Below are positions 7,092 through 32,148 of a DNA stretch of 64,000 nucleotides, in pieces (within the stretch, counting starts at the first letter, position 1; every line of letters starts with the position of its first letter). Under the pieces are notes generated by a model. It searched no databases, had not been told where the DNA came from, and worked only from the letters and a program-made list of their open reading frames with translations. The position numbers were made by a program, and so were the translations under genes. The stretch comes from Escherichia coli (GTDB lineage: Bacteria; Pseudomonadota; Gammaproteobacteria; Enterobacterales; Enterobacteriaceae): NCBI RefSeq assembly GCF_002854065.1, contig NZ_CP024147.1, one strand, 5' to 3'.

Positions 7092-7350
7092 GCCGGAGGC
7101 GACGCTGCGCGTCTTGTCCGGCCTACGAGAGTGTAGGTCGGATAAGGCGTTTACGCCGCATCCGACAATCGGCGCACCCTGCCGGAGGCGATGCTTACGC
7201 GTCTTGTCCGGCCTACGGAAATGTAGATCGGATAAGGCGTTTACGCCGCATCCGACATTCGGCGCATCCATGCCGGAGGCGACGCTGCGCGTCTTGTCCG
7301 GCCTACGAGAGTGTAGGTCGGATAAGGCGTTTACGCCGCATCCTACAATC
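7092..7350. repeat. Three tandem ~90-bp REP/BIME units in gabT-gabP spacer
   Basis: Unit gccggaggcgacgctgcgcgtcttgtccggcctacg...cggataaggcgtttacgccgcatccg repeated three times with few substitutions; classical REP palindromes. Confidence 0.9.
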
Positions 7351-10763: not shown

Positions 10764-11282
10764 ATGGCTTTGACAACCATTTCGCCGCATGATGCACAAG
10801 AATTAATCGCACGCGGCGCAAAGTTAATCGATATTCGTGACGCTGATGAATATCTTCGTGAACATATTCCTGAAGCAGATCTGGCTCCATTATCCGTGCT
10901 GGAACAGTCAGGTCTCCCGGCTAAATTACATCGCGAGCAAATTATATTCCACTGCCAGGCAGGTAAACGCACCAGTAATAACGCCGATAAATTAGCAGCG
11001 ATTGCCGCCCCCGCAGAAATCTTTTTACTCGAAGATGGGATTGATGGCTGGAAAAAAGCAGGATTGCCAGTAGCGGTAAATAAATCTCAACCCTTGCCGT
11101 TAATGCGCCAGGTGCAGATCGCTGCGGGTGGTTTAATATTAATCGGCGTTATACTGGGTTATACCGTAAATAGCGGTTTCTTCTTATTAAGCGGCTTTGT
11201 TGGTGCCGGGTTACTGTTTGCAGGAATTAGCGGTTTTTGTGGGATGGCAAGGTTGTTAGATAAGATGCCGTGGAACCAATGA
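10764..11282 (+). CDS. ygaP: Membrane-anchored rhodanese (thiosulfate sulfurtransferase) YgaP
   Basis: Rhodanese domain with active-site Cys (HCQAGKRTS) and C-terminal hydrophobic segments. Confidence 0.93.
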
Positions 11283-11334
11283 GCTTGAGAAGCGACGCCG
11301 GACGCGCCATAGCAGTGACATCCGGCCTCAGTAA

Positions 11335-11739
11335 TTAGATCAGGAAATCGTCGAGAGATTTACCTTCTGCCAGCGCCTGAGCGATTGGCTTCGGTGTACG
11401 GCCCTGACCGGTCCAGGTTTTAGTTTCACCGTTAACATCGGTGAATTTATATTTCGCCGGACGCGGCTGGCGTTTTTTACCAGCGCGTGGTGCAGCAGCA
11501 GAGCTATTACCCAATAACTCTTCCGGGTTAATTCCGTCAGCCTTCATCAGCTCCAGCCAGGTGCTAATTTTTTCCTGACGCTCAGCCAGTTCACGCTGCT
11601 GCTGTTCTTCTTCTTCACGTCTTTCTTTAGTGACAACCCTGAATTTTTCGAGCATTTCTTCAAGAACGTCAATGGAGAATTCGCGAGCCATCGCACGGAG
11701 GGTGCGAATGTTATTTAAACTTTGTAACATTACGGACAT
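11335..11739 (-). CDS. stpA: H-NS paralogue, DNA-binding protein StpA
   Basis: 134-aa [36 protein letters not shown]... Confidence 0.96.
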
Positions 11740-12406
11740 AATAAAGAAAACCTTTTAACGCCAAAACAAAAAAGTATTTCGTCGCGTAGTGTAAGCGATC
11801 ACTTATTATATTTCCACAAAATTTAATCTATTTACAGTCCTGCGCGAGATTATTTCAGCTGTTATTTTCTGAAACTCTCAGAATAATTTCAAGATTATAT
11901 ATTAGCCATTTTGATGAGTAATTTAGGTTATTGGTGAACAGAGTGGCGCTCTCTGCTCGCTAATTCCGCAAGCCTGACAAAACCGAAGTGAATAAAAATG
12001 CAATATAAAAGAATAAAAGAAAACACCCCTCACTGGTGCTTTCTGCTGTTAATGTACATTTTCTGGCATAAAAAATGCTGTAAATGACCCGGTCACGACA
12101 TACACCGAATTCTCTACGCTTATAGCGTTACCTCACCCCCAAACTTTCATTAGTGAAATTAAAGACAAGGCCATATCTAATTGATTTAATTGAAAATAAA
12201 TCATATCGGCATGTAAAAATCCACAATGTACAAAAAACGAGCCGTTACGGAATATTTTATCTACAAAAACTGACTAAATAAAAATTTTTCACTAATTGAT
12301 TAGTCATAGCCAGCGATATACGCTATGCGAAAATGCAGATGGCAATGAGATCCACTGCTTTCATCTCCATTAACATCCCATTACGCCTTTATTAAGGAGC
12401 ATTAGC

Positions 12407-12856
12407 ATGTTCTCACCGCAGTCACGCTTGCGTCATGCAGTTGCAGATACGTTCGCGATGGTTGTTTACTGTTCTGTCGTGAACATGTGTATTGAAGTTT
12501 TCCTCTCCGGAATGAGCTTCGAACAGTCTTTTTATTCCAGATTGGTAGCGATTCCGGTGAACATCTTAATTGCATGGCCATACGGTATGTACCGCGATCT
12601 GTTTATGCGCGCGGCACGCAAAGTTAGCCCGTCGGGCTGGATAAAAAATCTGGCGGATATCCTGGCTTATGTGACGTTCCAGTCACCGGTGTATGTGGCG
12701 ATCTTGTTAGTGGTGGGCGCAGACTGGCATCAGATTATGGCGGCGGTCAGTTCAAACATCGTTGTTTCGATGTTGATGGGGGCGGTTTATGGCTACTTCC
12801 TCGATTATTGCCGCCGACTGTTTAAAGTCAGCCGTTACCAGCAGGTAAAAGCCTGA
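12407..12856 (+). CDS. alaE: L-alanine exporter AlaE (YgaW)
   Basis: 149-aa membrane protein [27 protein letters not shown]... Confidence 0.93.
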
Positions 12857-12866
12857 CTCTTCTTTT

Positions 12867-12889
12867 CGCGACTGGCATCGCCAGTCGCG
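12867..12889. terminator. Bidirectional hairpin between convergent alaE and ygaC
   Basis: cgcgactgg-catcg-ccagtcgcg inverted repeat flanked by T-rich runs on both strands. Confidence 0.5.
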
Positions 12890-12892
12890 TCT

Positions 12893-13237
12893 TTAACTGG
12901 CTTCGCCAAATAAACCATTCAAATAACGTTCAAGCGCAACACGCGAACTAAAGCCATGCGGGATACCGTAATGCTCGTGTCGCTCGCCTGCTAAATAGAG
13001 CGGAAATTGCTGGTAATGATCGCAAGTTTTAATATCGGAAGCGGGTTCAGCCAGTGTCGAACTGCGTTCTTTTAATGTTGGATGAATTACCAGAGCGGTA
13101 CGTCCCATTCGCGCTTCGCGATTAACATAGACATAATTTTCCCCACGGCGGTAACCATACGCTTTCTGGGTTACCACATCGACAGTAAAACCGACTTTTT
13201 CAAGTACGCGCGCCACCTCGTCTGGTCGTAAATACAT
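12893..13237 (-). CDS. ygaC: Uncharacterised protein YgaC
   Basis: 114-aa [32 protein letters not shown]... Confidence 0.9.
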
Positions 13238-13867: not shown

Positions 13868-15202
13868 TTAATTTAAAGCACTGCGCAATTGCTGTGCTAC
13901 CTGTCGCGCCATACTTTCGCTAACGATATTCGTAAACGAGAGCAATAATCCTCCGTCCTCGCTTGAGCGGATACGCCAGTCGCTAAGTGCCTGTACGGCA
14001 AGACCAGCAGCATTGGCTTTATGCACGAATGTCACGTCATTACCTGCTAGTTTGATCACCATCTGGATACCGCCTTTTTGCGGCACAACCTGAAATCCCT
14101 GCTGCGTAAGTGCCTGCTCAATCCACTGCCGTCGCTGGGCATAATGCTGGCGCATTTTCTTCAGATGCCGCCAGAAATGCCCCTCACGGATGAAATCTGC
14201 CAGTGTGTTCTGCCACAGTACGGGTACAGCACATGGTTCCAGTGACGCCTGCTGCCGGAATTGCGAAATCTGCTCCACCGGCACCACCAGCCACGCACAG
14301 CGCAATGCAGGAAATAGCGCTTTGCTGAATGTTCCGGCATAAATCACCCGCTGCGGCGCGTCGAGACTTTTTAGTGCCGGTAACGGCTTACCGTGATAGC
14401 GAAACTCACTGTCGTAATCATCTTCAATAATCCATGCCTGACTACGCTCTGCCCATTCCAGTATCTGATACCTACGCGCTAAAGAGAGTGCCACACCCAG
14501 CGGGCTTTGGTGTGCCGGAGTAATCAGGGCAAAACGCGCATCAGGATAATTTTGTATTCCGCTTGTGACATCCAGTCCGTTGTCATCAACCGGCACAGGT
14601 AAAATTTCCAGACCGTGGCGAGTGACAATCGGGCGAATCAGCGGAAAGCCGGGATCTTCCATCCACATCCCGTCTCCCGGTTGCGCCAGAGCGTGCAGAA
14701 TTAAAGCCATTGAGGCCGCATAACCGTGAGTGATAAAGACCTGCTCTGGCTGACAATCAATCCCACGTGAAACGCGTAAATAATCAACAATAGCCTCGCG
14801 CAAGGCCGCCTCGCCGCAGACATCACCTAATGCCAAATCAAAACGCGTCTGGGTACGCAGACGGCGGCCCATCACCCGCGCCCACAATTCACGCGGAAAA
14901 AGATCAAGTGCAGGTAGCCCCATCTGAAAAGGCAGCGGCTGCTGACTTTCACCAGCAAAAGCCACGACATCCACAGCAGACTGTTGCGGATGTATCTGCT
15001 CACTGACAAAGGTACCCGCCTGTCCCCGCCTGACCAGCCATCCCTGCGCCACCAGCTCAGCATAAGCATTTTCGACAGTGGATCGAGAGACACCCAGCTC
15101 CTGCGACCAGGTACGGCTCGAGGGTAGCCTTGCGCCAGGTTTCAGTTCTCCTTGCTCGATAGCCGTTTTTAACTGACGGGCGATATCCTGATAACGTGGC
15201 AT
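13868..15202 (-). CDS. MocR/GabR-type transcriptional regulator (N-terminal GntR HTH fused to a large C-terminal domain of aminotransferase size)
   Basis: 444-aa ORF; N-terminus MPRYQDIARQLKTAIEQGELKPGARLPSSRTWSQELGVSRSTVENAYAELVAQGW is a GntR HTH followed by a ~350-aa domain; divergent from next gene. Confidence 0.8.
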   Translation of the reverse strand: MPRYQDIARQLKTAIEQGELKPGARLPSSRTWSQELGVSRSTVENAYAELVAQGWLVRRGQAGTFVSEQIHPQQSAVDVVAFAGESQQPLPFQMGLPALDLFPRELWARVMGRRLRTQTRFDLALGDVCGEAALREAIVDYLRVSRGIDCQPEQVFITHGYAASMALILHALAQPGDGMWMEDPGFPLIRPIVTRHGLEILPVPVDDNGLDVTSGIQNYPDARFALITPAHQSPLGVALSLARRYQILEWAERSQAWIIEDDYDSEFRYHGKPLPALKSLDAPQRVIYAGTFSKALFPALRCAWLVVPVEQISQFRQQASLEPCAVPVLWQNTLADFIREGHFWRHLKKMRQHYAQRRQWIEQALTQQGFQVVPQKGGIQMVIKLAGNDVTFVHKANAAGLAVQALSDWRIRSSEDGGLLLSFTNIVSESMARQVAQQLRSALN

Positions 15203-15289
15203 ATGGTCTGCTTTTTTAGGTAATTTATGGCTCTCTTTAGCAGTCCATTATAGTGCTACATTGCGGGCGTTAATAAGAGGAGAAACTGT

Positions 15290-15721
15290 ATGACTACATT
15301 ACGTCAGCCTTACTACGAACTTAGCCCGGCAGTGTATAACGCACTGGTGCAGGCCAAAACGGCACTGGAAAATAGCACGCTGGATACCACGTTGATGGAG
15401 TTAATTTATTTGCGCGTCTCGCAAATCAACGGCTGCGCATTTTGTCTGGAGATGCACAGCAAAGCATTGCGCAAATCCGGTGTGCCACAACACAAACTGG
15501 ACGCCCTGGCAGGCTGGCGCGTAAGCCATCATTTTGATGAACGCGAGCGAGCGGCGCTGGCATGGGCGGAATCAGTGACCGATATTGCCAGAACCCATGC
15601 GGAAGACGAGGTTTATCAGCCTTTGCTTGAGCATTTCAGCGCAGCAGAAATCAGCGATTTAACGTTTGCCATCGGGCTGATGAATTGTTTTAACCGTCTG
15701 GCCGTTTCCATGCGGATGTAA
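15290..15721 (+). CDS. Carboxymuconolactone decarboxylase / AhpD-like family protein
   Basis: 143-aa ORF with CxxCxxxH-type motif (GCAFCLEMH) typical of AhpD-core proteins; divergent from the MocR-type regulator. Confidence 0.75.
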   Translation: MTTLRQPYYELSPAVYNALVQAKTALENSTLDTTLMELIYLRVSQINGCAFCLEMHSKALRKSGVPQHKLDALAGWRVSHHFDERERAALAWAESVTDIARTHAEDEVYQPLLEHFSAAEISDLTFAIGLMNCFNRLAVSMRM

Positions 15722-23339: not shown

Positions 23340-23425
<86 letters not shown>

Positions 23426-32075: not shown

Positions 32076-32148
32076 GAAAGACGCGCATTTGTTATCATCA
32101 TCCCTGAATTCAGAGATGAAATTTTGGCCACTCACGAGTGGCCTTTTT
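32076..32148 (+). ncRNA. micA: MicA (SraD) small regulatory RNA
   Basis: Sequence gaaagacgcgcatttgttatcatcatccctgaattcagagatgaaattttggccactcacgagtggccttttt recognised as MicA, including the terminator hairpin and U-tail. Confidence 0.9.

Follow-up and report, generated by a model that had tools for sequence, protein, structure and literature searches.

The stpA-alaE gap of Escherichia coli is very probably a shared divergent control region

The 667-bp gap between the divergent genes stpA (minus strand) and alaE (plus strand) of the Escherichia coli chromosome is, in all likelihood, a control region shared by both genes, with no gene in its central 332 bp. The gap occupies positions 11740-12406 of the window, which is the whole 64-kb stretch of DNA that was analysed and to which coordinates refer unless another record is named. 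It is an ordinary, already known divergent promoter region and not a new kind of element. The two genes that border it are listed here.

11335-11739, minus strand: stpA coding sequence (H-NS paralogue), a 134-aa open reading frame, 100% identical to the StpA of K-12 and of strain 100416
12407-12856, plus strand: alaE coding sequence (L-alanine exporter), a 149-aa open reading frame, annotated as AlaE in K-12 and in strain 100416

Location, composition and distribution of the gap

The gap has 34.8% GC where the window as a whole has 52.2%, and just 0.1% of the 667-bp segments in the stretch are as AT-rich. Based on the PGAP annotation of the identical strain 100416, the gap is the longest of approximately 60 intergenic gaps in the 64 kb, the next-longest being 355 bp (between nrdF and proV, the proU upstream region) and 335 bp. 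The longest open reading frame wholly within the gap encodes 42 aa (12153-12281, plus strand), and the lack of longer frames is simply the ordinary outcome for AT-rich non-coding DNA. An earlier note on this DNA had described an unusually long, AT-rich non-coding region of 667 bp between stpA and alaE with no open reading frame of 60 aa or more, a description that holds in its coordinates, its length, its composition and its coding content.

The gap is 100% identical to that of E. coli strain 100416 and is present as a single copy; it is found in 5419 of 5426 complete E. coli genomes. Among the matches listed, no E. coli record carries an annotated feature under the match. The K-12 stpA-alaE (ygaW) region is the same locus, a gap of 668 bp at NC_000913.3 2798496-2799163 that is flanked by the same genes, is approximately 97% identical as counted from the alignment, and has no annotated gene, RNA or regulatory feature. 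The two strains differ by strain-level substitutions, which lie nearly all within 11927-12195 and hence mostly in the spacer described below, and by one 1-nt indel, while the promoter-proximal parts are 98-100% identical. In the swine isolate E. coli QL57EC (NZ_CP172108.1, 3843-4610), an IS1X2 element has taken the place of the N-terminus of alaE and of the half of the gap next to it; at least one strain can therefore dispense with both alaE and its promoter.

Conserved architecture among Enterobacteriaceae

The comparison covered 80 AlaE-encoding loci, with one genome per species, and two E. coli loci, for a total of 82. The stpA gene lies divergently upstream of alaE in 60 of the 82 loci, separated by a gap of 475-789 bp with 31-43% GC. 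Recurring in these 60 other enterobacterial loci, the length and the AT-richness of the gap are conserved properties that do not reflect chance, and the long AT-rich divergent gap is hence ancestral to the Enterobacteriaceae.

Conservation along the gap is sharply uneven and separates the stpA promoter and leader, a fast-evolving spacer, the alaE array and promoter, and the alaE leader. The layout is one of approximately 100 bp of conserved stpA promoter and leader, a 332-bp spacer, approximately 160 bp of alaE upstream array and core promoter, and an alaE leader of approximately 76 nt. Within Escherichia, the 100 bp or so adjoining stpA display 90-100% identity.

The stpA promoter and leader

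The features predicted on the stpA side of the gap are the following.

11788-11816, minus strand: predicted stpA core promoter, with -35 TGGAAA at 11816-11811, a 17-bp spacer and -10 TACACT at 11793-11788
11740-11782, minus strand: predicted stpA 5' UTR of approximately 42 nt, or approximately 60 nt from an alternative -10, placed by the conserved hexamers

The conserved pattern of the stpA promoter in a 59-species alignment is cTGGAaAT-N17-TAcacT, from which the hexamers and the transcription start site (TSS) of stpA are predicted. A perfect TATAAT at 11810-11805, within the spacer between the -35 and the -10, is an alternative -10, and two -10 candidates remain. The segment 11800-11838 is the most AT-rich of the gap, with 20.5% GC. 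The predicted leader carries a weak Shine-Dalgarno sequence, AAAGG, and is 90-98% identical across Escherichia. The supplements of Mendoza-Vargas 2009 contain no TSS entry for stpA or ygaW. Two promoters that Shimada et al. 2014 predicted in the stpA-alaE intergenic region (TTTACA-17-TTTAAT and GTGATA-17-TCTAAT; PMC3946193) were not adopted here, as they occupy non-conserved positions that are distant from both genes.

The alaE array, promoter and leader

On the alaE side, three features are distinguished.

12174-12295, plus strand: alaE upstream regulatory array, a putative Lrp platform, from -157 to -36 of the predicted TSS, with an A/T-rich UP-like block
12296-12324, plus strand: predicted alaE core promoter, with -35 TTGATT at 12296-12301, a 17-bp spacer and -10 TACGCT at 12319-12324
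12331-12406, plus strand: predicted alaE 5' UTR of approximately 76 nt, with Shine-Dalgarno AAGGAG at 12394-12399

The pattern TTGnnn-N17-TAnnCT, with its fixed 17-bp spacing, is present in all 61 orthologous gaps (60 loci and the window) and lies 72-84 nt upstream of the ATG in each except one locus with an insertion in the leader. The hexamers place the alaE TSS near 12331. A ChIP peak of sigma-S RNA polymerase has been reported at the alaE promoter (PMC4447067), with which the TAYRCT-type -10 would be compatible.

Upstream of the core promoter, an ungapped 59-species alignment anchored on the -35 reveals conserved blocks at -157 to -140, -122 to -95, -83 to -62, and -56 to -41. From -157 to +1 there is not a single indel among the 59 species, and conservation is gone upstream of -160. 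The array, with 25.6% GC, is a probable Lrp nucleoprotein platform. The assignment of its conserved blocks to Lrp would rest on published ChIP and genetics and not on sequence: the Lrp consensus YAGHAWATTWTDCTR, at three mismatches or fewer, has 3 matches in the gap compared with 3.3 in dinucleotide shuffles, and individual Lrp sites within the four indel-free AT-rich blocks between -157 and -41 are not resolvable by consensus.

Within the alaE leader, the GGAG of the Shine-Dalgarno sequence is invariant across the aligned genera. The only other conserved leader sequence, as seen in approximately 20 genera, is a C/A-rich motif at about 12342-12358 (+12 to +28) with the consensus CAA-CCnAAAnCACTA, which could be a putative translational enhancer or sRNA target site. 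The alaE leader of Citrobacter amalonaticus is approximately 205 nt long in place of approximately 76, owing to a GC-richer insertion of approximately 130 nt between the promoter and the Shine-Dalgarno sequence that may be a repeat element.

Regulators of the two genes

The stpA-alaE (ygaW) regulatory region is reportedly the subject of a study by Ihara et al. 2017 (J Biosci Bioeng 123:444), and earlier studies of the region are said to include those of Free & Dorman 1997 and Sonden & Uhlin 1996. Genomic SELEX located an H-NS site and a site for the RpoD holoenzyme in the spacer between stpA and alaE (Shimada et al. 2014, PMC3946193). Transcription of stpA is derepressed without H-NS and is subject to auto- and cross-regulation (PMC2814080; PMC4668568). 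The gene is induced by osmotic and temperature upshift, and Lrp sustains its expression in minimal medium (PMC4668568; PMC2814080).

Strong Lrp ChIP-seq peaks are present at stpA-alaE, which is the model locus of Ziegler & Freddolino 2023 (PMC10127797). In that work, Lrp bridges the stpA-alaE DNA to a second site in ygaP, as seen by AFM, and thereby affects the regulation of both stpA and alaE; removal of the ygaP site reduces Lrp-dependent activation of stpA more than 5-fold. Lrp slightly represses a PalaE-lacZ fusion in minimal medium and activates it strongly when leucine, isoleucine and valine are present, and qRT-PCR is also among the evidence for Lrp dependence at the locus (PMC10127797). 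Addition of valine raises alaE expression more than 300-fold (PMC7066862). Just within alaE, at K-12 coordinate 2799166, a PhoB ChIP site that is transcriptionally inert has been reported (PMC10294691); in the window this site is AGTCACGCTTGCGTCATG, at 12421-12438.

The earlier note had proposed that regions of this type are regulatory hubs bound by H-NS and StpA. The SELEX, hns derepression, Lrp and sigma-S data cited above bear this reading out, and it is right but already known from published experiments. Low GC of the H-NS type characterizes the gap as a whole and reaches 20-26% in the promoter-proximal blocks. Matches to the H-NS (TCGATAAATT), Lrp (YAGHAWATTWTDCTR) and IHF consensus sequences in the gap are no commoner than in dinucleotide shuffles, and sequence alone therefore does not reveal which proteins bind. 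A Fis-like pattern occurs at two palindromic sites (4 hits compared with 0.7 expected), a signal too weak to interpret.

The central spacer

Between the two promoter regions lies a single further feature.

11839-12170, no strand assigned: variable AT-rich spacer between the promoter regions, 332 bp, 38% GC

The spacer evolves faster than synonymous sites. In this segment E. coli and the other Escherichia species are 0.52-0.61 identical, compared with 0.76-0.79 at the four-fold degenerate sites of alaE. The spacer is unalignable outside Escherichia, and its length ranges from 137 to 450 bp across genera. A mobile-element origin was considered and rejected: plasmid and phage collections match it in only a few near-identical E. 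coli records, consisting of three multi-Mb records misfiled as plasmids and one unannotated 1.7-kb host fragment filed as phage.

Across the Escherichia sequences, the invariant positions of the spacer form clumps: three runs of at least 7 occur, compared with 0.16 expected by column permutation, an excess that alignment anchoring may inflate. Such clumping may mark a small number of short binding sites specific to the lineage, or no more than the anchoring of the alignment. The islands that are invariant in all seven Escherichia sequences are ATTATTTC at 11849-11856, GTTATTT at 11861-11867, ATGCTG at 12075-12080 and ATTCTCTAC at 12109-12117, and the rest of the spacer around them is approximately 55% identical. 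The island ATTCTCTAC is also present in S. enterica subsp. arizonae, about as far from alaE as in Escherichia.

One alternative holds that the spacer is functionless, a neutrally drifting filler that owes its AT-richness to mutational bias and not to selection for H-NS or Lrp binding. This reading is possible though doubtful. It accommodates a divergence in excess of that at four-fold degenerate sites, the variable length, the absence of motif enrichment, and a GC content that leaves the spacer less AT-rich than the conserved functional blocks (20-26%); the 38% GC could indeed result from plain mutational drift without selection for H-NS binding. However, all 61 loci keep a long gap, the shortest spacer being approximately 137 bp, the invariant positions are clumped (subject to the effect of anchoring given above), and the results of H-NS SELEX and of the Lrp bridging work point to the entire region. 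In the preferred reading of the gap as a shared divergent control region, the central spacer would separate the two promoters and would at most provide a non-specific binding surface for nucleoid proteins.

Searches for RNA genes and structured leaders

The earlier note had also suggested that the gap could hide small RNAs, a suggestion left unsupported by Rfam, the terminator scan, Term-seq, RNAalifold and fold z-scores. At E<=10 over 11000-13200, Rfam returned chance-level matches only (CRISPR-DR63, rli43 and others), far below the gathering scores and none better than E=0.37. Elsewhere in the window, the matches at gathering thresholds were MicA, three naRNA4 repeats and five tRNAs. MicA, which served as the positive control, scored 83.9 bits at 32076-32147 (plus strand) in the gshA-luxS gap, and the recovery of MicA and the other RNAs demonstrates that the Rfam search works in this window. 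MicA is unannotated in the PGAP record of the identical strain. The three naRNA4 matches (REP-type nucleoid-associated RNA) are located at 7136-7303 and 23342-23419 (plus strand), after gabT and after proX.

The promoter and terminator scan found one terminator-like hairpin inside the gap, at 12044-12018 on the minus strand, with a 10-pair stem and a TTTATTCTTT tail. This hairpin and the short islands invariant within Escherichia are what would favour an unannotated, Escherichia-specific sRNA in the spacer, for example a minus-strand transcript ending at the hairpin. Such an sRNA is very unlikely. Two K-12 substitutions cut the stem to 8 pairs, the hairpin is unalignable in E. albertii and the cryptic clades, and no promoter-like site lies upstream of it on the minus strand. 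No 3' end is recorded between 2798243 and 2800533, or at 27985xx-27990xx, in the Term-seq data of Adams et al. 2021. As a terminator the hairpin was rejected, being weakened in K-12, absent from other Escherichia and unmatched by a Term-seq 3' end. No Rfam match falls in the spacer even at E<=10, and full-text searches retrieved no paper reporting an sRNA in the stpA-alaE gap. Taken as a whole, the gap shows no conserved promoter paired with a terminator, no Rfam family and no significant structure. Weak or condition-specific transcription from the spacer may occur.

Folding of sliding 100-nt windows gave no plus-strand window below z -1.8, and the spacer never fell below -1.8 on either strand. 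Minus-strand dips at 11725-11824 and 12275-12424 reached z -2.8 to -3.3 with 100 shuffles. With 200 shuffles both dips were only z -1.8 and -1.95 and were thus not reproduced; one lies antisense to the alaE leader, and in the other, over the stpA promoter and leader, the pairing involves bases that precede the predicted stpA TSS. In RNAalifold, 25 alaE leaders yielded 5 pairs, which show little or no variation and 0 compensatory changes, at -2.6 kcal/mol, and 22 stpA leaders yielded 0 pairs.

These results bear on the proposal that the alaE or stpA leader is a structured cis-regulatory RNA, such as an alanine riboswitch, a thermosensor or an attenuator. The proposal could draw on the more than 300-fold induction of alaE (PMC7066862), on the 100-shuffle dips, and on an E. 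coli segment, CTCCATTAA at 12364-12372, which by inspection could pair with the Shine-Dalgarno region. The RNAalifold result for the alaE leader argues against a riboswitch or attenuator, and the stpA leaders share no pairs. Moreover, the dips shrink with more shuffles and concern the antisense strand or sequence upstream of a predicted TSS, the leaders are short (approximately 42-76 nt) and show little conservation beyond the Shine-Dalgarno sequence and the one C/A-rich motif, and Term-seq records no premature 3' end. A structured leader is accordingly extremely improbable.

Searches for small proteins and an upstream open reading frame

Small proteins were the other content that the earlier note had thought might be hidden in the gap, and frame conservation, the codon-position pattern and the protein-collection look-up lend them no support. 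The gap contains 19 open reading frames of at least 10 aa. Not one of them is preserved intact across the six other Escherichia sequences, and their Shine-Dalgarno-like matches span no more than 3-4 nt. The peptides of the eight largest frames (20-42 aa), together with the K-12 variant of the upstream open reading frame (uORF) considered next, are absent from a collection of 15 billion proteins by exact look-up.

The uORF has 20 codons (12333-12395, plus strand), and its TAA stop overlaps the alaE Shine-Dalgarno sequence, ending inside TAAGGAG. It might be supposed that the uORF is translated and is coupled to, or controls, alaE translation. The window strain, K-12, Escherichia sp. MOD1-EC7003 and E. 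albertii all have the intact frame, and its start lies 2 nt from the predicted TSS, which would possibly yield a near-leaderless message. Nevertheless, the uORF is without a Shine-Dalgarno sequence. An early stop and a 6-nt deletion disrupt its frame in three further Escherichia lineages, and Salmonella, Citrobacter, Enterobacter and Klebsiella do not have it. As counted from the alignment, the E. coli and E. albertii versions share 9 of the 20 residues, and their differences number 7, 4 and 6 at codon positions 1, 2 and 3, a spread that carries no coding signature. The exact peptide, like its K-12 variant, is missing from the 15-billion-protein collection. A full-text search linking alaE with a uORF, leader peptide or ribosome profiling found nothing relevant among the papers listed. 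Translation of the uORF in this role is highly unlikely. It is likewise improbable, if slightly less so, that the invariant islands bind a further regulator or mark where a lineage-specific transcript silenced by H-NS begins and ends, or that the uORF tunes alaE translation in E. coli and E. albertii.

Neighbouring features

Beyond the gap, a GC-rich inverted repeat, GCGACTGGC-ATC-GCCAGTCGC, lies at 12857-12892 between the convergent genes alaE and ygaC and looks like a putative shared bidirectional terminator; it has a chance-level Rfam match to Pseudomon-groES. Further along, at 13868-15721 between ygaM and nrdH, the window carries a gene for a MocR-like PdxR regulator (minus strand) and a divergent gene of the carboxymuconolactone decarboxylase family. 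Only a 247-bp gap separates ygaM from nrdH in K-12, so this segment is a strain-variable insert of approximately 2 kb.

Proposed mechanism and related systems

As a shared control region, the gap would contain two core promoters of the sigma-70/sigma-S type, approximately 550 bp apart, that fire outward. The stpA promoter at about 11788-11816 (minus strand) would give rise to a leader of 40-60 nt, and the alaE promoter at 12296-12324 (plus strand) to a leader of approximately 76 nt. The approximately 120 bp of AT-rich, strictly spaced DNA upstream of the alaE -35 would act as an assembly platform for Lrp oligomers, which would switch alaE on at high levels of alanine or leucine. H-NS and StpA would bind the AT-rich DNA and silence stpA, whereas Lrp at the gap would bridge to the second Lrp site in ygaP and so lead to stpA activation.

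Two known systems resemble parts of this arrangement. The proU (proVWX) upstream region is likewise a long AT-rich gap before an inducible transporter operon, represented in the same window by the 355-bp nrdF-proV gap. It is a classic H-NS-silenced promoter and a known H-NS target. The two differ in that proU has a downstream regulatory element inside proV and is under osmotic control, while stpA-alaE is divergent and its alaE side is dominated by Lrp.

The second system, ilvIH, is activated by Lrp through six Lrp sites from about -260 to -40. The alaE promoter is similar in having a strictly spaced AT-rich array from approximately -160 to -40, with block centres near -148, -108, -72 and -48, and in its Lrp-dependent, leucine/alanine-responsive expression (PMC10127797). 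The effector acts in opposite directions, however, as it raises activation at alaE and leucine relieves activation at ilvIH.

Significance

No sRNA, small protein or structured leader is detectable in the gap, which is therefore removed from the candidates for follow-up. The comparative map, comprising the stpA -35 and -10, the indel-free alaE array and the fast-evolving spacer, could aid the design of promoter deletions. The region represents a textbook-style divergent promoter under H-NS/StpA and Lrp, and an experimental model fragment for Lrp bridging.
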